Below are positions 20,171 to 62,291 of a DNA stretch of 64,000 bases, in pieces. Position 1 is the stretch's first letter. Every line of letters starts with the position of its first letter. The DNA comes from Octopus vulgaris (taxonomy: Eukaryota). The translations under genes were made by a program, and so were the position numbers. The stretch covers positions 42,966,001-43,030,000 of the forward strand of contig OX597822.1 in the NCBI GenBank assembly GCA_951406725.2, given 5' to 3'. The notes under the pieces were generated by a model, which did no database searches, had not been told where the DNA came from, and saw only the letters and a list, made by a program, of their open reading frames with translations.

Positions 20171-20354
20171 CCATATGGATCTGTCTAATTGCACCCAAGC
20201 GCTCAGTAAATTTATATAAGGCGTCCTCAAATTTATTTTCTCCAAGTTTTTTAAAAAAATGGATATTTTAAAATGAAAATTTCTACAAATACTTTTGAGA
20301 CGATTATGTTGATCTCGAAAGGATGAACGGCTAAGTTGACTCAAAAGTATTTAT

Positions 20355-20734
20355 TCTTGAACTTTTTTACTTATTTCAGTCATGTGACTGCGGCGATGCT
20401 GGAGCACTGCCTTTAGTCAAATAAGACTCCAGGACTTATTCTTTGTAAGCCTAGTACTTATTCTATCGGGCTCTTTTTGCCGAACAGCTAATTTACGGGG
20501 ACGTAAACACACCAACGTCTGTTGTCAAGCGATGGTGGGGGAACAAATACAGACACATACACACAAACACACACACAGACACAGACATATGCACGACGGG
20601 CTTCTCTCAGTTTCCGTCTACCAAATCCACTGACAAGGCTTTGGTCGACGCGAGGCTATAGTAGGAGACACTTGCCCAGGATGGTACGCAGTGGGTCTGA
20701 ACCCGGAATCATGTGGTTAGTAAGCAAGCTTCTT
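20355..20734 (-). mobile_element. SINE family A body; its head is displaced to 23350-23383
   Basis: The body stops at the target AAGAAGCTTGCTT; the missing head GGCGCAGGAGTGGCGTGTGCTAAGAAGTTTGCTT lies 2.6 kb away in the same orientation. Confidence 0.85.
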
Positions 20735-23349
20735 TATTTCATTACATTTGCCATAAAGGCTGTACATAGAGTAAAGCAGCTTTGCGGGCTGGACAAGGAC
20801 ATTAATGAAATGAATGATAATGAAAGAAAGATAAGGATGGGAGAAGACAAAAAGCGCCCGCCAACTTCTGCTCCTCTGATATATTGTACTTTAAAACCAA
20901 ACATAAAACGAGGTATTAAACCTCTTACAACTTTTACAACTTCTCAATTTTTGGACTTAGCAGTCTATTACAAACAACAACATAGATCAATAATTACATA
21001 TAATATATATAAATACAATACACAAAGCCCCTCCTCCCAGACCTGGCTTACGCTTCCCTTAGGCAATGCACCAGCCCTAGGTCGGGGCCCCAGGTGTATC
21101 TAAACATGTCCTTTGAGAAGGTGTTCATTACCCTGACCATAGCGACATCCGATATGACCTTCGTAGTCACCTGCGAAGGCCACTCCTCGTCCTGTGTCCA
21201 GGGCATGGGCTCCTCCCTCCAGGAAGCAAGCTTTTTTATTTTATCAAATTGGCCATGGAGGCCCTACACTTAGATAAAAATCAAAAAGTCAATCAAGCAT
21301 CCAAAATACATTATCACTTTTCCCTTCCTCCTCTTTCCGGACCCCCAGTCAAATATCTAGCCGCCTGCAGAGCAGACCACGTTGACAGCCGGGAGTTCAG
21401 AAAGAAGGCGAAGTGCCTACTATCAAATGTTTGTATCACACAGTGCCATAATTTATAACTCACCCTCAACATCACTTGTGCCCGCATCCTCCGCCATCCT
21501 CCACGCCTCATTCAAGATCGAAGCGGGTTCCGTGTCGGCGTCGCCCGGGTACAAGCGATATTCCTCATTGAGCCCCTTCAGCCTAAACGTCACGTCAAAC
21601 GTTATGACCTCCACAGCTATCTGCGGAGGCTATTCAGGATCCTGTGTGAAGGCTAAAGGTGCTCTCTTATGGTGCTTTTCCACCACCTTTTCAACCTCTC
21701 CGCCTCTATAGAAGAAGACAAATAATTCGTCTTCCTCCGGGGGTGGGATATCCAATTCTTCCGTTGGCGGCACAGTTCCTGCCAATGGTGTTTCTTCTCC
21801 TGCCGGTGGCACAACCCCAACCGACGTAGTTCCGGGACATTCCGGTACTACGTCACCGACTGCCGGCATTGTCCCGTTTCTCTTCCTCTTTTTTTTCTTT
21901 TCAACTGAGGAAGGGTGCGTCTCCTCCGTGACCGGGAGATTCGCCTTCCGCTCCTCATCCTTAGGATCCTTCGGTGAGCACCCATTGTTGCTCACCTTCA
22001 TCCTCTGGCGGCCCCTGTTTGAGGAGCCCTCCACCTCCTCGGCCGCCTTCATTCCCTCTTCTACAGAGGTCTCACTCAACAACTCTTATTTTGTTCCTGG
22101 GGACAGTTTTTCTTTATATGGCCGGACTCCAGGCACCAATGACACCTGGGGGGGGGGGACCCTCAAGAATCACCGGGTCCCTGCACCCGGCCATTTTCAA
22201 AAAATCTGGAAAAACCAGATTGGCTGAGTGGGTCCAAAGGGTCAAAACAGCTTTTGACCCAACCCAATCAGCCGCAGGAAGAACTTTCACATTAAGAAGC
22301 TTGGTCCCATTGCTACCCAGAACCCGGCGGATATTCTTCTCTATCCACTCGGGTTTTTTCCCGGGTGGCAACCCGCAGACCCAAGCTTTCGTCAACCTCC
22401 TCCCACAATACGTGGGGAGAAAAAAAAAATTTCGTCACCCTCCAAGGGCTGACTCGCAAATTTGTGAGTCATTTCAGGGGTGTCAAATAGCAACCACACC
22501 GTTGCGTATTTGACACTCCTGGAAATGAATTTAATTGTTGGCAAATACTCTGCCAACTCCTTTTCAATTGCTGTCTTTTCGAATAGGGCGATGGTGTCGA
22601 GTGACTTGAAGTAGGTTCTCAACAGCACCGTTCTATCTTCACTGTCTTTCAACCACTTTTTGTGCGGTATAATCTCCCACTCCAAAACCTTATCTTTTTT
22701 TCATTGCCATGTTTCCCTTTTTTTAAAAAATATGTTCAAAATAAAACTTAAAAAGAGAGGAGAGAAAAGAAATCAAAAGAAATACACAATAACCAAAAAG
22801 AAGAAAGTCAAATAAAGTTTAGAAGAAAGAAAGTCAATAGTTCAGAAACACAGCAAATAAAATCTTCCGGCCATTCGGTACTCCCGGCCTAGGTTGAACC
22901 CGAAACGCCACAACTGGAACACAACTTCCACAAAAATTGATATGCAAATTGTTCAATCTTCGGAGGCAAAGACACTCCCTCAAATAGCAGTTTTCACAAT
23001 TATTTTAAAATTCTTCAAAAGGCACAATACTCCTTCAAGCAACAATTCTCATAATTAAGTGAGAAAAATATTCACTCAACATAAACTGGAGATGAATACG
23101 CCCCAAACAAAAATTCTCACAATTCAGCGAGAAAAAATATTCGCTCCATGCAGGCAGAACCAGAATTCTGAATCCAGTAGGACTTCCTACCTGTACAAAA
23201 ACAATTCTCAACAAAAATTCCCACTGGACCCCAAAAGCAGAATCTTACCTTACAATGGAGCTTCAAAATGTTTCAATTCGAGACGGCTTCAAAAGCATGT
23301 CTTACCGCTTTGGTGCCGAACACCACAATTATTCGCACATGCGTAGTGG
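20735..23349 (-). mobile_element. ORF1-only (RT-less) Tx1/L1-related retroelement, copy 1, inserted in a SINE A head
   Basis: 13-bp TSD at 20722-20734 and 23350-23362 (12/13); homologous to 59951-61871; no endonuclease or RT coding sequence. Confidence 0.8.
21453..22710 (-). pseudogene. Gag-like ORF1 (RRM-like region and CCHC knuckle), frameshifted, with an internal stop
   Basis: ORF pieces 22685-22392, 22395-22114 and 22082-21630 align with the 60267-61558 protein; TGG>TAG at 21632-21630. Confidence 0.8.
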
Positions 23350-23584
23350 AAGCAAACTTCTTAGCACACGCCACTCCTGCGCCAATAATTTCATTTGGAA
23401 ATGTAGAAAATTTCATTAAAAATATCCATTTTTCATCATCCGATCGAGCTTATTCGATATTATGAACCTGCACGGGCCATTCATCTCGGTCTTGCATTAG
23501 TCTAAGGAAGTCTTTGGGGGAGGCATCCAGTGTCCCTGGGGGGAGGGTGTTGATCTATAAACGTTGTGTTCGGACAACCTGTTC

Positions 23585-34650: not shown

Positions 34651-35199
34651 AAACTGGTTAACATATACATACTTGCACATATACGCACACACACATTCAC
34701 ACACTCACATAAACATACATACACACATTCATGTATGTATGTGTGTATATATATATATGTATATGCATATGTTTATATTTACACACACACATATGTATGT
34801 ATGTGTGTATATATGTATGTATATGCATGTATACACACACACACACAAACATACATACACGCACCCATGTATATATGTATGTATGTGCGTATATATATGT
34901 ATATGCATATGTATATATATATATATATACACACACGGACATACAAACATACATGTATGTATGTATTGTGTGTATATATATATATGTATATGCATGTATA
35001 TACACAGACACATATATGTATGTATGTATGTATAAATCTATGTGCATATGTACGTAAATAACACAATAGCCCGTTTTGAATAAATCTTAAATTTGTACAA
35101 AATGGAGGGAGATCTATTCGAAAGTGCTCAACGAAATATTATACAAAAACCAAGGGATATATGCGCTATAACTATCGTTTATGATACAGAACTGAATTA

Positions 35200-36471
35200 T
35201 TGGGTTGTCCGGAAGGTTCGTGCCAATTTATAGTAGCTTACCTTTCGACTTATTTTAGAACATAATTGAGTCCATAAAATAGGATTTGATTACACCTCCA
35301 TTTAGAGCACAGTTTAAGCTATCTTTTCGTGGAAGAAGGTTTATGTTCCTATAACCTGTGTTAATTCTGTGACTATTTAAAATGGAAGATAAGAAAGTTC
35401 ATTTTCGGCACTTGATGCTTTTCTTTTTCCGTAAAGGGGAAATGCCTCGCAAGCAACCAAAGAAATATGCGCAGTTTACGGTGATGGTTCTTTATCCGAA
35501 AGAACTGTACGGAAGTGGTTCGCAAGGCTCCCAGCTGTAGCCTTATTGATAAAGAACGATCAGACAGACCATCCACTACATATGATGACCAAATCAAGTC
35601 ATTATTTGAGAATAATCCACATTGCACAACCCGAAAATTGGCAGAAAGCCTCAACCTATCAAAATCTATCTTCGTGAGCACCTGGTAAAGCTTGGGTACA
35701 CAAATCGCTACAATGTTTGGGTACCACATGAGCTGAGTGAGAAGAACCTTTTGGATTGCATTTCCATCTGTGATTCGCTTTATAAACGGAATGAAAACGC
35801 GCCTTTTTTGAAGCAGATTGTGACAGGCGATGAGAAATGGATTGTCTACCGAAATGTTCATAGAAAGCGATCCTGGAGTAAGCGATATGAGCCACCCTTA
35901 GCTAACCCCAAAGCGGGTCTTCACCATAAAAAAGTCTTGCTTTGTCTGGTGGGATTGGAAAGGAATTCTGTACTATGAGCTTCTCCCAAGTAACCAGACA
36001 ATTAATTCAAGAAATAGTGCACACAACTGGACGAGTTAAAAGCAGCAATTCAAGAGAAACATCTAGAATTAACCAACAGGAAGGGTGTTGTTTTCCAACA
36101 TGATAATGCCAGACCGCACGTTTCTTTGGGAACCAGACAAAAATGGTTGCAGCTCGGCTGGGATGTGTTACTCCACCCGCCATATTCACCAGATATTGCT
36201 CCTTCGGATTTCCACTCATTGAGGTCTCTGCAGAATAGTCTTAATGGTAAAAATTTCAATTCCTTGGATAACGTAAAAAGATACCTTGATGAATTCTTTG
36301 CCATGAAACCACCTCAATTCTGGGAAGAGAGTATTTTCAAGTTAAAGGCAAGATGGAGACGCATTGTGCAACAAAATGGTTCATATTTGGTTGATTAAAA
36401 ATGAAATGGCAAGTATTTATTGACCTTTTTCTTTCCTTTAAAAATCGGCACGAACTTTCCGGGCAGCCCAA
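35200..36471 (+). mobile_element. Full-length mariner (DD34D) DNA transposon; transposase frameshifted (ATG 35382, stop 36398)
   Basis: TIR TTGGGTTGTCCGGAA.. and TA TSDs; WVPHEL, TGDEKW, HDNARPH and YSPDIAPSD motifs. Confidence 0.95.
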
Positions 36472-36509
36472 TAGAATTGTAAAACAAGAGTTACAATAAA
36501 ACCGATATA

Positions 36510-38290: not shown

Positions 38291-38676
38291 AAGGCGGCGA
38301 GCTGGCAGAAACGTTAGCACGCCGGGAGAAATGCTTAGCAGTATTTCGTCTGCCGCTACGTTCTGAGTTCAAATTCCGCCGAGGTCGACTTTGCCTTTCA
38401 TCCTTTCGGGGTCGATATATTAAGTACCAGTTAAGCACTGGGGTCGATGTAATCGACTAAATACCTAGCTCTGTCCTTGTTTGTCCCCTCTATGTTTAGC
38501 CCCTTGTGGGTAATAAAGAAATAGGTATTTATATTCTGAGTTCAAATTCCGCCGAGGTCGGGTTTGCCTTTCATCCTTTCGGGGTCAATAAATTAAGTAC
38601 TAGTTGCGCACTGGGGTCGATCTAATCGACTGGCCCCCACCCCCAAAATTTTGGGCCTTGTGCCTAGAGTAGAAAA
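38291..38676 (+). mobile_element. SINE family B X+Y dimer with a perfect 16-bp TSD
   Basis: GAATTCAACAGCTGTT at 38275-38290 and 38677-38692; empty paralogous site at 34603-34618. Confidence 0.92.
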
Positions 38677-38938
38677 GAATTCAACAGCTGTTGTCGATTC
38701 ACAGTTAAATTTTATCACTAGTATTATACGTCCGTAAGATTTTGTTCCGGCTTCTTATGTTTAAGTTCTGTGTTCAAACCCCGCTGAGGTTAATACTGGC
38801 TCTCATCCTTCCAAGATCAATAAAATAAATTGTTAGTCAAGTACTGAATCCAATATAGTCGGTCTCTCCTCAATATTACTGGCTAGTTTCTCTCCTTTCC
38901 AAATTGCTGGCATAATTAGAGACATTGTCATTATTATT

Positions 38939-52319: not shown

Positions 52320-52987
52320 GTATAAAAATGTATGACTATATATACATATATAGATGTGTGTATACATATAAATACTTATATATGTATATATAGATGTATG
52401 TATATATAAATGCATATACATATATATAGAATGACCTATACACATCTTAATATTTTATACATATGAATATACATGCACACAAGGACAAGGACACACATAT
52501 AAACACAAGACAAACGATGACACTCATACACACACACATTTATGTATAAATTGACAGACCTGAATATATACACATATAGGCTTTCACATGTTGACAGACA
52601 CATTCACACATACGCACGCACATGCATGCACAAAACTGACAAGCATGCTTATGCACACATATACATCACATACATACACACTGAAATATGAAATACAAGA
52701 CACAAGATCACGCACATAAGCTTATGTATATATATATATAGACATAGCGACAGAAGCGTGCATAAACACACTTCAATTCACAGTGCAACCACCGCTAACT
52801 TTGGAGAGCTGTAATTCCAAGTAGACTTTATGCCGGGCTAAGGACACAAAATATTGTTGGTTGGTGGCGTTACGCGAACACATCATTCAGGTTTATCTAT
52901 CCTTAAATCCTTAAAACCCTTAAAAATGTTTTAGCCCGAAGACCGCGGCCATGCTGGGGCACCACCACTGAAGTAAAAAACTGCCTT

Positions 52988-53060
52988 CGCCCACAGGGGG
53001 ACACGAACCCACGACCCTCAGATTAAATGTCTGATGCTCTACCGACTGAGCTATGCGGGC
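52988..53060 (-). tRNA. tRNA-Lys(TTT)-like sequence, probably a pseudogene or SINE head
   Basis: 73-nt cloverleaf close to eukaryotic tRNA-Lys(UUU); deviations U33A, A58T and one T-stem mismatch; T6 run 7 nt downstream. Confidence 0.75.
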
Positions 53061-53232
53061 GCAGCAGCTATCTATATGATCACGTTGGCACTTAAAGAAA
53101 TACAACACCTACCCCTTCTACCTCCCTCTCCATCTTCTCCTTTTTCCTTCGTCCTCTCTCTCTCCCCTTCTCTCTATGCTCCCCACCACCACTCATTCAG
53201 CTCAGTTTTCCTACATTCCTTTTCCTCCAAAT

Positions 53233-53635
53233 AAGGCGGCGAGCTGGCAGAATTGCTAGCGCACCGGGCGAAATGCTTATCGACATTTCGTCTGCCGCTA
53301 TGTTCTGAATTCAAATTCCGCCGAGGTCGACTTTGCCTTTCATCCTTTCAGGGTCGATTAAATAAGTACTAGTTACGCACTGGGGTCGATATAATCGACT
53401 TAATCCGTTTGTCTGTCCTTGTTTGTCCCCTCTGTGTGTAGCCCCTTGTGGGTAGTAAAGAAATAGGTATTTCGTCTCTCTTTATGTTCTGAGTTCAAAT
53501 TCCGCCGAGGTCGACTTTGCCTTTTATCTTTTAGGGGTCGATAAATTAGGTACCAGTTGCATACTAGGGTCGATCTAATCAACTAATCCTCTATCCCCCC
53601 ACCAAATTTCGGGCCTTGTGCCTAGTGTAGAAAAT
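53233..53635 (+). mobile_element. SINE family B X+Y dimer with ~18-bp TSD
   Basis: ATTCCTTTTYCTCCAAAT on both sides; junction at 53465/53466. Confidence 0.88.
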
Positions 53636-54056
53636 ATTCCTTTTCCTCCAAATAAAAAAAATGAAATAACATAAAACATAATAAAATTAGATAAGAGGAC
53701 GGACAAGTGGCTGAGTGGGATTTTACTGTTGTATTTCCAACCGGCCTGTCTGCAGTTCGCGCCGTCTCTTTGGCAATGCTTGAAATTTCGTCATTGCCCA
53801 AAACATCAAAACATTTAACATAACATGTATGTATGTGTGAGGGCGCATAGCCTCGTGGTTGGGGCTATTGCACTCACAATCGCGAGACCATGGTTTCCAT
53901 TCCTGGACCGTAGCAATACGGAATCGTAAAATATAACTGCCAACTAAATGTAGCTGTCTCATAGAGGACGATGCTACACAGATCCAGAAACCCGGGTCTG
54001 TGTATATCACGTAAGGCTAGAGATGGAAACGATGATTCCCCTCGCAAATACTAATC

Positions 54057-58218: not shown

Positions 58219-58836
58219 AAGGCGGCGAGCTGGCAGAAACGTTAGTACTCCGGGCGAAATGTTTAGCGGTATTTTGTCTGCCGTTACGTTTTGTGTTCAA
58301 ATTCCGTCAAGGTCGACTTTGCTTTTCATCCTTTCGGGATCGATTAAATAAGTACCAGTTACGCACTGGGTTCGATGTAATCGACTTAATCCGTTTGTCT
58401 GTCCTTGTTTGTCCTCTCTGTGTTTAACCCCTTGTGGGTAGTAAAGAAATAGGTATTTCGTCTGCCGTTACGTTCTGTGTTCAAATTCCGCCGAAGTCGA
58501 CTTTGCCTTTCATCCTTTCTGTGTTGATAAATTAAGTACCAGTTACGCACTGGGATCAATGTAATCGACTTAATCCCTTTGTCTGTCCTTGTTTGTTTCT
58601 TCTATGTTTAGTCCCTTGTGGGCAATAAAGAAATAAGAAACGTTAGCACGCCGGGCGAAATGCTTAGCGGTATTCCGTCTGTCTTTACGTTCTGTGTTCA
58701 AATTAAGCAGAGGCCGACTTTGCCTTTCACCCTTTCGGGATCGATAAGTTAAGTACCAGTTGCGTACTGAGGTCAATCTAATCGACTGGCCCACCTCTCT
58801 CCAAAAATGTCGGGCCTTGTACCTAGAGTAGAAAAG
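58219..58836 (+). mobile_element. SINE family B trimer (X+X+Y) with an 18-bp TSD
   Basis: AATAAYGACAGGAACCTC at 58201-58218 and 58837-58854; junctions at 58451/58452 and 58635/58636. Confidence 0.9.
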
Positions 58837-58869
58837 AATAACGACAGGAACCTCCTCTACCCATCGGTA

Positions 58870-59253: not shown

Positions 59254-59381
59254 ACGAAGATGGGTGTGTTAACAACAAACAGATGTACTAGTTTAACGTT
59301 CGAGAAGTGAGAAGTGAGAAGTGAGAAAGTCTTTTACGTTTCGAGCCTAAGCTCTTCGACAGAAAGGAACATAGAAATAAA
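59227..59381 (-). mobile_element. Truncated (TA)n-associated Penelope-like repeat with a minimal hammerhead variant (59331-59366)
   Basis: CTTT-CTGTCGA-A-GAGC ttag GCTC-GAAAC-GTA-AAAG; homologous to 1095-1215. Confidence 0.55.
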
Positions 59382-59843
59382 CGGGCATACGGATCCGTTG
59401 AGGTTCAATTCTCAGAGGAAAAGGTGGCTCGCGGGCACGCCGTGTGCCCCCTGAAGACCAAGGAAGTGGTACTTTTGCCAACGTACAGGGGGCGACGAAC
59501 ATCCCGTGTAAGGATTAACGAAATCCCACCCACAGTAGATCCGAAAGAAGTGGTAGCCGGCCTGTTGTTTAACAGGACGGACCGGATAAACATATTACAG
59601 ACCACAAGTTCCGCCCCACAGATGTGGTTAGGGCGGAACATAACGGTTTTAATACAAGGCAAACAGGAGGGCATTCAGGCCCTACCAGAGAGAGTACTTG
59701 TTGGGGAGAATGTGGCCCTTAGGGTACAGGTGGAAGGCCGTAAGCCCACCTGTTACCAATGCGGAAAAAAGGGCCACATTCGAGCTGACTGTGAAGTCCC
59801 CCAGCCTAGGTCTCTGCTTGAACCAATTAACAATGTCCGTTAA
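59382..59843 (+). pseudogene. 5'-truncated gag-like ORF1 paralogue with a CCHC knuckle
   Basis: KEVVLLPTYRGRRT..VEGRKPTCYQCGKKGHIRADC aligns with KEILFLPTYHGKRL..LEGRPPRCHRCLESGHIKKNC. Confidence 0.75.
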
Positions 59844-59950: not shown

Positions 59951-61871
59951 CAATTTTTGTGGAAGTTGCGTTCCAGTTGCGGCGTTCCAGGTTCAACTCA
60001 GGCCGGGAGTACCGTAAGGCCAGAAGATTTTTGCTGTGTTTTGCTGTTTATTGACTTTCTTTTGAACTTTATTTAACTCCCCTTTTTGTTTTTTTGTTTA
60101 TTGTGACTTTCCGTTGATTTCTTCCCTTCTGTTGTGCTTTCTCCTTTTTGTATCTTCCCTATTTTTTTCAAAAAATCTATCGAATTTTATTAGGACTTTT
60201 GAACTTTTTTGTTCTCGCTTTTTAAGTTTATTTTGAATATATTTAAAAAAAAAAAAAAAAAAATATATGGCAATGAAAAATGACAAACTTTTGGAATGGG
60301 AGATTATACCGCCTAAAAAGTGGTTAAAAGACCGTGAAGATAGGACGGTGGTGTTGAGAACCTACTCCATCGCCCTATTCGAAAAGACGGCAATTGAAAA
60401 GGAGTTGGCAGAGTATTTGCCAACAATTAAATTCATTTCCAGGGGTGTCAGATATGCAACGGTGTGGTTGCTATTTGACACCCCTGAAGAGGCTTGCAAA
60501 TTTGCTAGTAAACCCCTGGAGGGCAAGGAAATTTTATTTCTGCCCACGTACCATGGAAAGAGACTGACGAAAGCTTGGATCTGCGGGCTGCCACCCGGGA
60601 TAAAACCCGAGTGGATAGAGGAGACTATCCGCCGGGGTCTGGGTAGCAGCGGGACTAAGGTTCTTAATGTGAAAGTTCTTCCTGCGGCTGTTTGGGTTGG
60701 GTCAAAAGCAATTTTGACCCTTTGGACCCAATCAGCCAATCTGGTTCTTCCAGATTTTTTGAAAATGGCCGGGTGCAGGTACCCGGTGATACTTGAGGGT
60801 CGCCCCCCTAGGTGTCATCGGTGCTTGGAGTCCGGCCATATAAAGAAAAACTGTCCCCGGGAACAAAGTAGGATCCCGGAGCAGTTAAGTGAAACCCCTG
60901 TAGAAGAGGGAATGAAGACGGCCGAGAAAGCGGAGGACTCCTCAAACAGAGGCCGAAAGAGGAAGGTGAGCAACAATGGGTGCTCATCAAAGGATACTAG
61001 GGATGAGGAGGGAAAGGCGAATCTTCCGGCCACGGAGGAGACGCACCCTCCCTTAGCTGAAAAGAAAAAAAGAAAAAGAGGAAGAGAAACGGGACATTGC
61101 CGGCAGTCGGTGACATAGTACCGGAATGTCCCGGAACTACGTCGGTTGGGGTTGTGCCACCGACAGGAGAAGAAACACCGTTGGCGGGAACTGTGCCGCC
61201 AACGAAAGAATTGAATATCCCGCCCCCGAGGAAAAACGATGTATTGATCCTCTTCCATAGAGGCGGAAAAATTGAAAAGGTAATGGAAAAGCACCATAAG
61301 GGAGCACCTTTAGCCTTGACACAGGACCCCGAATGGCCTCTGCAGGTAGCTGTGGAGGCCGTGGAGTTCGACGTGACGCTTGGGCTGAAGGAGCTCAATG
61401 AGGATTATAGCTTGGTCCCGGGCGACGCTAACACGGAACTCGATTACATTCTGAGGGAGGCGTGGTGGATGACGGAGGGTGCGGGCACAAGTTATTTTGA
61501 GGACGATTCACAAATTGTGATACGACCTAGAGCTGGCGCATTCCTAAGGGAAGTGTAAGCCAGGTCTGGGAGGAGGGGCTTTGTGTATTGTATTTATATC
61601 ATATGTAATTATTGAACTATGTTGTTGTTAGTAATGGACTGTTAAGTCCAAAAATTGAAAAGTTGTAAAAATTGTAAGAGGTTTAATACCTCGTTTTGTG
61701 TTTGTTTTTAAAGGAACAATGTTTTAGAGAAGCAGAAGTCGGCGGGCGCTTTTTGTCTTCTCCCATCCCCATCATCTTTCTTTCATTATCATTCATTTCA
61801 TTAATGTCCTCATCCAGCCCGCAAAGCTAACTTACTCTATGTACTGACTTTATGGCAAATGTTATGAAATA
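59951..61871 (+). mobile_element. ORF1-only Tx1/L1-related retroelement, copy 2
   Basis: Colinear with 22939-20735 apart from a ~350-bp deletion; same 3' junction to a headless SINE A. Confidence 0.8.
60267..61558 (+). CDS. Gag-like ORF1 (~430 aa if the single frameshift in the A-rich run near 61060-61080 is corrected)
   Basis: ORFs 60267-61118 and 61097-61558; CX2CX4HX4C knuckle and basic KKKRKR; copy 1 reads through this point in one frame. Confidence 0.7.
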
Positions 61872-62245
61872 AAGTAGCTTGTTTACCAACCACATGGTTC
61901 CGGGTTCAGTCCCACTGCGTTGCACCTTGGGCAAGTGTCTTCAACTATTGCCTCGGGCCGATCAAAGCCTTGTGGGTGGATTTGGTAGACGGAAACTGAA
62001 AGAAGCCCGTCGTATATATGTATATATGTGTGTGCTTGTATGTTTGTCTGTGTTTGTTCCCCTAGCATTGCTTGACAACCAATGCTGGTGTGTTTATGTC
62101 CCCGTCACTTTGCGGTTCGGCAAAAAGAGACCGATAGAATAAGTACTGGGCTTACAAAGAATAAGTCCCGGGGTCGAGTTGCTCGATTAAAGGCGGTGCT
62201 CCAGCATCGCTGCAGTCAAATGACTGAAACAAGTAAAAGAGTAAA

Positions 62246-62248
<3 letters not shown>
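61872..62248 (+). mobile_element. SINE family A lacking the first ~20 nt of the head
   Basis: Begins at AAGTAGCTTGTTTACCAACC. Confidence 0.88.

Positions 62249-62291
<43 letters not shown>

Follow-up and report, generated by a model that had tools for sequence, protein, structure and literature searches.

Tandem copies of the crocodilian SINEU-3 "sandwiching a TSD" have been read as sequential insertions made by Tx1-type machinery (Kojima 2015, PMC4494074). As far as the passages on these families go, SINEU-3 and Tx1-Mar in Mariner-N4_AMi resemble the octopus element analyzed here both in target-specific insertion into another repeat and in a tandem built around one target-site duplication (TSD), but the crocodilian units are snRNA-headed SINEs with a Mariner target whereas those of octopus bear an ORF1 and have a SINE as target, and the SINEU-3 tandem was judged there not to be a mobile subfamily while a deleted derivative in octopus suggests that the fused unit moved. 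Like those tandems, the octopus one consists of units in the same orientation, with a single TSD-length copy of the target between them and an upstream unit that carries a 3′ terminus of the family type. The Tx1-clade LINEs Tx1L, Keno, Kibi and Koshi, for which the pertinent passages mention no SINE target, also share with the octopus element a fixed insertion base in a multicopy target and a short TSD (PMC4494074); in octopus, 2/2 copies end at the same base of SINE A and copy 1 has a TSD of 15 nt. L1-Tx1 families have been listed for O. vulgaris, as totals only in the portion of the source that concerns them (PMC13282606). HAL1 (half-L1) elements likewise have ORF1 only, without reverse transcriptase (RT), and according to the passages on them arise repeatedly from autonomous LINEs (PMC5753468); HAL1 is mammalian and L1-derived, whereas the octopus element has an ORF1 with two predicted RRM domains and a CCHC knuckle, is sequence-specific and has no poly(A) tail that we could see. 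In common with HAL1, it combines an ORF1 without ORF2, LINE-type junctions and selection on ORF1, in the N-terminal part. The same source describes, in the part on L1 UTRs, replacement at either the 5′ or the 3′ end, and there as in octopus an ORF gains an unrelated 3′UTR; octopus differs in that a likely intermediate (copy 1) and a product (copy 2) are both kept, and in the route, which would be tandem insertion followed by deletion. Each ingredient of the case, namely tandems sandwiching a TSD and ORF1-only LINEs, has a known precedent, and the literature searched, which did not extend to Repbase and Dfam, where such a family has possibly been deposited, held no description of an ORF1-only, SINE-targeting LINE family in octopus.

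The window, i.e. the whole stretch of 64,000 nt of O. vulgaris DNA that was analyzed, is microsatellite-rich eukaryotic DNA. We think it fairly probable that positions 21278-21048 are the frozen junction of two ORF1-only non-LTR retroelements, inserted sequentially at the same SINE site, and that the composite was copied as a unit and later suffered the deletion that gave rise to copy 2. Copy 1 spans 23347-20735 on the minus strand (2613 nt) and is inserted in an octopus SINE, 'SINE A', which we take to be of tRNA origin. On that strand the locus reads, in a single orientation throughout, as SINE head, target copy T1, element A, target copy T2, element B, target copy T3 and SINE body. The head (23363..23383) is the upstream half of the empty site and agrees with the corresponding part of SINE A copies that are uninterrupted, and the body (20349..20719) matches other SINE A copies. 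T1, the 15-nt 5′ TSD (23348..23362), agrees at 13/15 positions with T3 and with T2, and is followed, as far as the ATG, by the 5′UTR of A (22711..23347), which is common to copy 2 only over about 22940-22711. The broken ORF1 of A (21453..22710) would encode two RRM-like domains, a CCHC knuckle, a low-complexity linker and a C-terminal extension; it has several frameshifts and a stop at 21632-21630, and its 3′ region contains a long hairpin (21570..21664) that lies in a gapless 101-nt alignment with B. The 3′ tail of A (21237..21452) terminates in the 3′-end-like sequence 21278-21237, a short CC-5 nt-GG hairpin and then ...AAATA. Next come T2 (21222..21236, 15 nt), whose last target base is the same as that of T1; the 5′ part of B (21048..21221), with DNA homology to A and a remnant of a related ORF1 3′ end (PMPWTQD...LREA*); the 3′UTR of B together with the real 3′ end of the composite (20735..21047, 92% identity to the tail of copy 2); and T3, the 3′ TSD (20720..20734). 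A 33-nt inverted repeat (91%), 23433-23402 / 20287-20255, brackets the SINE and copy 1 as a whole, and another short inverted repeat is found directly 3′ of this SINE; these repeats possibly mark an older palindromic or MITE-like host.

The first-pass annotation had reported a second 3′ end within copy 1 at 21278-21221, resembling the real junction, and both this string and that of the real junction (20775-20719, on the same minus strand) were indeed found at their places. Positions 21221-21268 are 79% identical to 20719-20766 over 48 nt (BLASTN, E=3e-5). Taken together with their target, the real ends of copies 1 and 2 gave local scores of 50 and 32, respectively, against the interior of the element, and 0/1000 dinucleotide shuffles reached either; with the target bases left out the scores were matched by 10/1000 and 414/1000 shuffles, respectively. 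Over the whole window and both strands, no other non-self stretch matches either real end as well as the gapless 33-mer 21269-21237 does (24/33 and 23/33), and the internal end is the top non-self match of a profile of the two real ends (E=0.052), finishing on the last model position. The reported target match held as well, the 13-mer 21236-21224 agreeing with the 3′ target at 12/13 positions. T2 begins at the base right after the internal end, the last SINE base matched is identical in T1 and T2, and each pair among T1, T2 and T3 differs at 2/15 positions; the number of such sites to be expected in the element's interior is about 0.003. All three are of one SINE subtype, the other subtype being found in about 4/8 uninterrupted SINE A heads.

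The internal and the real end share 73% identity and the ORF remnants of A and B 58%, while the tail of A upstream of the internal end gave no alignment with the tail of B above chance (226/500 shuffles were as good). Patterns of this kind suggest that the end of A was kept while A and B diverged, and since the internal end has no evident use where it stands, it probably worked as a real end until the two elements were joined. A short CC-5 nt-GG 3′ hairpin lines up gaplessly in the three element ends and in two SINE tails; none of the five folded ends beats its shuffles (z -1.2 to +0.2), and as a conserved feature the hairpin is only suggestive.

Element B is 487 nt long and has 58% DNA identity to the ORF1 3′ region, the homology with A starting within 6-13 nt after T2 (nhmmer E=4e-5 and 1e-3). 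A paralogous C-terminal frame had been proposed here, and the frame PMPWTQDEEWPSQV...LREA* is encoded at 21209-21048 as described, but the partner quoted for it, PLALTQDPEWPLQV...LREA, is the version found in copy 2; that of copy 1 itself reads PLAFTQDPE*PPQI...LNEA. The B frame scores 57 (BLOSUM62) against the C-terminal frame of copy 2 and 52 against that of copy 1, with 0/2000 shuffles reaching either. Upstream of T2, homology at the protein level was not significant in 8/8 tests. At the nucleotide level the A region of copy 2 has a weak similarity to the internal end plus target (13/1000 block shuffles, vs 89/1000 for copy 1), which in simple shuffles including post-target bases was reached by 3-4/1000 for copy 2. 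Elsewhere within the 64-kb window, no A tail and no B standing alone was found. At the DNA level A and B are homologous, the repeated "domain" being their common ORF1 3′ end.

As a conserved protein domain, the TQDxEWP region did not hold up, its amino-acid identity being not above that predicted from the DNA, with no purifying selection and no homologue in the libraries searched. A and B have 9/30 amino acids identical vs 9.6 expected from DNA identity, and their differences fall 15/12/11 over the codon positions, with no third-position bias. BLOSUM similarity between them is borderline (P=0.07, and P=0.06-0.09 for the LREA end); the first 19 codons gave P=0.018, for a stretch chosen post hoc. 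Between copies 1 and 2 the region shows 33 changed residues vs 29.8 under neutrality. The C-terminal frame of copy 2 is open for 164 codons, which suggests that this region was once coding. Searches returned no homologue in Pfam, none among 1.84 billion representatives at E<=0.001, 0/1242 longer candidates at E<=10 (proteins of at least 154 aa) and no usable match in the ESM Atlas; one PDB sequence match, at E=1.3, was taken as chance. Octopus proteins are thinly covered in these collections, which such blanks reflect as much as a true absence. A three-sequence AlphaFold model of the region had a pLDDT of 45.7, too poor to decide the fold, and found no Foldseek match at E<=0.001.

Rather than any protein fold, the best-kept trait of the repeated region is a stem at the RNA level. 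In a gapless alignment of 101 nt between A1, A2 and B, the long hairpin folds with z of -5.3, -4.5 and -1.8 in the three; for its inner stem of 13 bp (A 21633-21604, B 21183-21154) the values are -3.8, -3.6 and -3.2. B keeps 12/13 inner pairs vs 7.3 expected (P=0.005), and 6/7 changed pairs stay paired (P=0.03), one of them by a C-G to U-A double change; this stem was seen by eye before it was tested, and in three sequences only. The outer stem keeps 8/15 pairs vs 8.3 expected, i.e. chance, and structure conservation between copies 1 and 2 is mixed, with 2/8 element tests significant and no excess of double changes. Pervasive structure in the ORF1-coding DNA was a less expected side result: the mean folding z is about -2.5 on both strands, with single windows to -8, in 60267-61500 (+), in 22710-21450 (-) and in a distant ORF1-like fragment at 59380-59820 (+), and such strong folding is absent from three control regions; neither the UTRs nor an RNase H ORF, a further repeat and the flank show it. 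With strong hairpins all through ORF1, the inner stem may be one of many. No Rfam ribozyme family was found at the 5′ end of B at E<=5, and on the sense strand an HDV descriptor and the hammerhead core were both absent from B and from the A hairpin. It is possible, if doubtful, that B is no random truncation and instead represents an entire retroposon of 487 nt, with its 5′ end placed at the foot of a conserved RNA hairpin of ~100 nt, the hairpin being a preserved cis-element and repeated capture at the SINE target followed by deletion a route of 3′-end swapping in this octopus family. Both the basis and the weakness of that idea lie in the pairing of the first bases of B with the hairpin base, which occurs in one folding window and disappears in a longer one.

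The closest relatives of the element's ORF are from Octopus sinensis and O. vulgaris, the best of them (O. sinensis) being 64% identical to the ORF of copy 2. ORF1 is predicted to comprise two RRM domains and a CCHC knuckle, on several lines of evidence each of which is modest: a zf-CCHC match at E=0.008, below the Pfam cut-off; ESM Atlas look-alikes of the CCHC/ZCCHC3-RBD kind with scores of 0.91-0.93; and a structural model (pLDDT 56) that matches RRMs over residues 22-91 and 96-180 (Foldseek E=0.003, Z about 7). RRM domains and a CCHC knuckle characterise the ORF1 of the Tx1 clade, although this type of ORF1 is not unique to Tx1. Tx1-clade elements differ from that of octopus in that the latter has no endonuclease/RT ORF on which a clade assignment could be based. 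In its N-terminal 194 codons, ORF1 shows 30 changed residues between copies 1 and 2 vs 39.4 under neutrality (P=0.003), a sign of purifying selection which suggests that the two copy lineages diverged while active; the linker and the C-terminal part show no constraint in the same comparison. In O. sinensis the closest homologue terminates at a lysine/arginine run, the site of the frameshift in copy 2 (61061-61076), and a working ORF1 may therefore stop before the C-terminal extension. Downstream of ORF1, as far as the 3′ end, neither copy has an RT or endonuclease ORF (ORF2), from which it appears that the element works like an ORF1-only, non-autonomous, sequence-specific LINE, and no autonomous ORF2 partner was found within the window.

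Copy 2 lies on the plus strand at 59951..61871, its start being approximate. It is 5′-incomplete and without a 5′ junction, where copy 1 has the SINE head and a duplicated 15-nt target, and is followed by the target and a headless SINE A body (61872..62255, +) entered at the same insertion base in a different SINE copy. The two SINE bodies differ by 14.9%, within the 12-21% of unrelated pairs, which argues for separate host SINE copies; the B tails differ by 7.8%. The two copies align at 85-86% in two blocks with a gap in copy 2 between them, and copy 2 is without 349 nt of copy 1 (21432-21084) that span the A/B junction, so that A at 21433 is joined to B at 21083 with one base shared; an alternative join would lie at a GATAC repeat in B, 13-17 nt upstream. 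The first-pass annotation had described copy 2 as the ORF of A with the tail of B, which is what we found, with the addition that the last 11-12 codons of B are kept too, with a 1-nt deletion: the ORF1 of A (ATG at 60267) runs at 61523/61524 into the last codons of B and then its tail. In copy 1 these last B codons stay in the A-homologous frame, suggesting that copy 1 is the older arrangement.

Whether the composite itself was mobilised, as had been claimed, may be judged in part from divergence between the copies. At non-CpG sites the N-terminal part of the ORF differs by 9.0%, the linker by 9.1% and the B tail by 7.7% (A-ORF vs B tail p=0.55), and such alike values are as expected if A and B travelled together. 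Mobilisation, the simplest account of copy 2, is probable and agrees with these values, but a tandem formed at the copy 1 locus together with an independent A/B chimera could have given the same picture. The C-terminal region of A diverged more (16.3% vs 9.0% non-CpG, p=0.003), hinting at mosaicism; CpG decay was considered as a cause and does not explain it. The equidistance of T1, T2 and T3 and their single subtype slightly favour a tandem formed at the copy 1 locus over an inherited one. Within the sequential-insertion model, we nonetheless regard an inherited composite as considerably the more probable of these two.

Under the preferred explanation, a trans-acting endonuclease/RT of a sequence-specific LINE, probably of Tx1 type and not encoded here (its existence is inferred, as no ORF2 partner was found), would nick the SINE immediately 3′ of the head, with target-primed insertion duplicating 15 nt and leaving a usable site. 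A second, related element would use this remaining site. Transcription from A might then run past its own end to the end of B, giving a composite RNA with a recognised 3′ terminus that could be copied as a single unit, and a later deletion across the junction would produce the lineage of copy 2, in effect a 3′UTR replacement. The order of target, A, target, truncated B and target proposed in the first-pass annotation is supported by the internal 3′ end, the internal target and its fixed length of 15 nt, and a plain duplication fits it poorly. Its further proposal that B re-inserted after A could not be sustained, since an anatomy of this kind results equally from entry of A into the upstream target copy and from entry of B into the downstream one; A-first and B-first are equivalent.

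Sequential insertion is favoured because the spacer has exactly the TSD length and shares its right edge with the outer 5′ TSD, because B becomes homologous to A directly behind the spacer, as expected of a 5′-truncated insert, and because the internal end is conserved though the tails are unalignable. Counting against the preferred explanation are the availability of two copies only and the weak upstream similarity in copy 2, which would also be expected from a longer duplication. The same two insertion steps could have taken place at the copy 1 locus, with copy 2 an independent A/B chimera (from a template switch, or from a different tandem by deletion) and no spread of the full composite. 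The target copies, pairwise 2/15 apart as if from one site, would fit this, as would the other subtype in 4/8 uninterrupted SINE A heads and the greater divergence of the A C-terminal region, but it requires that an A ORF was joined twice, separately, to one and the same end of B with its last codons, and does not readily account for the uniform divergence of ORF N-part, linker and B tail (9.0, 9.1 and 7.7%); we hold it to be rather unlikely. A single event, in which RT copied B and then jumped end-to-end onto an A transcript carrying a short read-through target, predicts the same anatomy, and a jump or switch of template is invoked, in the passages concerned, for 5′ additions to SINEU (PMC4494074). 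The read-through would however have to end exactly at TSD length, and T2 and T1 stop at the same base, so that we consider a single event improbable.

Just as improbable is an ancient duplication at the DNA level, covering the 3′ part of a single element with its flank and followed by divergence in place. It would explain the homology of A and B and the weak nucleotide signal that copy 2 gives upstream (13/1000, or 3-4/1000 in simple shuffles), yet copy 1 and all protein-level tests are without that signal, a functionless internal end and target should have decayed like the tails, which are now unalignable, and the breakpoint would fall on the TSD edge only by chance. Lastly, the match to end and target might be a coincidence within the coding sequence of a second C-terminal domain, given that the frame GLHGQFDKIKKLAS is open through the target (21263 to 21051) and that GQFDKI resembles GKIEKV. 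The extension adds 1 BLOSUM point (57 to 58), two stops lie just upstream and the real ends are matched at the nucleotide level much better than chance would allow; a coding coincidence is thus largely refuted and very improbable.

Several other features of the window may be noted. Dimers and trimers of a second SINE family occur at 38293-38680, 53235-53638 and 58221-58840 (+) and at 18360-17961 and 24989-24620 (-), with a fixed internal junction, tail then head-internal sequence, in 6/8 copies and TSDs around the whole array in 3 clear cases; these arrays offer a model case, in the same window, for a composite of this kind. The first tail in this family has the CC-5 nt-GG-AAT motif and the final AAATA in common with the 3′ end of the element; a link between the two was tried and set aside as weak (E=0.62), and a joint profile missed the internal site. 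The ORF1-like fragment at 59380-59820 (+) stems from another ORF1 within the element's superfamily (42% to O. sinensis and O. vulgaris proteins but 30% to copy 2, zf-CCHC E=5e-5) and lies about 130 nt upstream of the 5′ break of copy 2, with no 3′ end or target between. An open frame of 320 codons at 57479-56520 (-), with an RNase H match (E=2e-8) and a weak zf-RVT match, represents the 3′ end of another LINE. A tRNA-Lys(TTT) was detected by ARAGORN at 52987-53061 (-), and young repeat copies in inverted orientation, with 92-95% identity, occur at 36124-36473 / 63392-63044 and 35195-35421 / 63615-63389, this repeat being probably a DNA-transposon derivative.

The locus offers a readable case of sequence-specific retroelements building composites and replacing their 3′UTRs, with a likely intermediate and product in one window. 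If B were in fact a complete retroposon, precursor and product of a 3′-end swap would be preserved 40 kb apart. The fused A-B unit was probably mobile, with its 3′UTR swapped by deletion at the junction, and the findings point to an ORF1-only, SINE-targeting LINE derivative in octopus.
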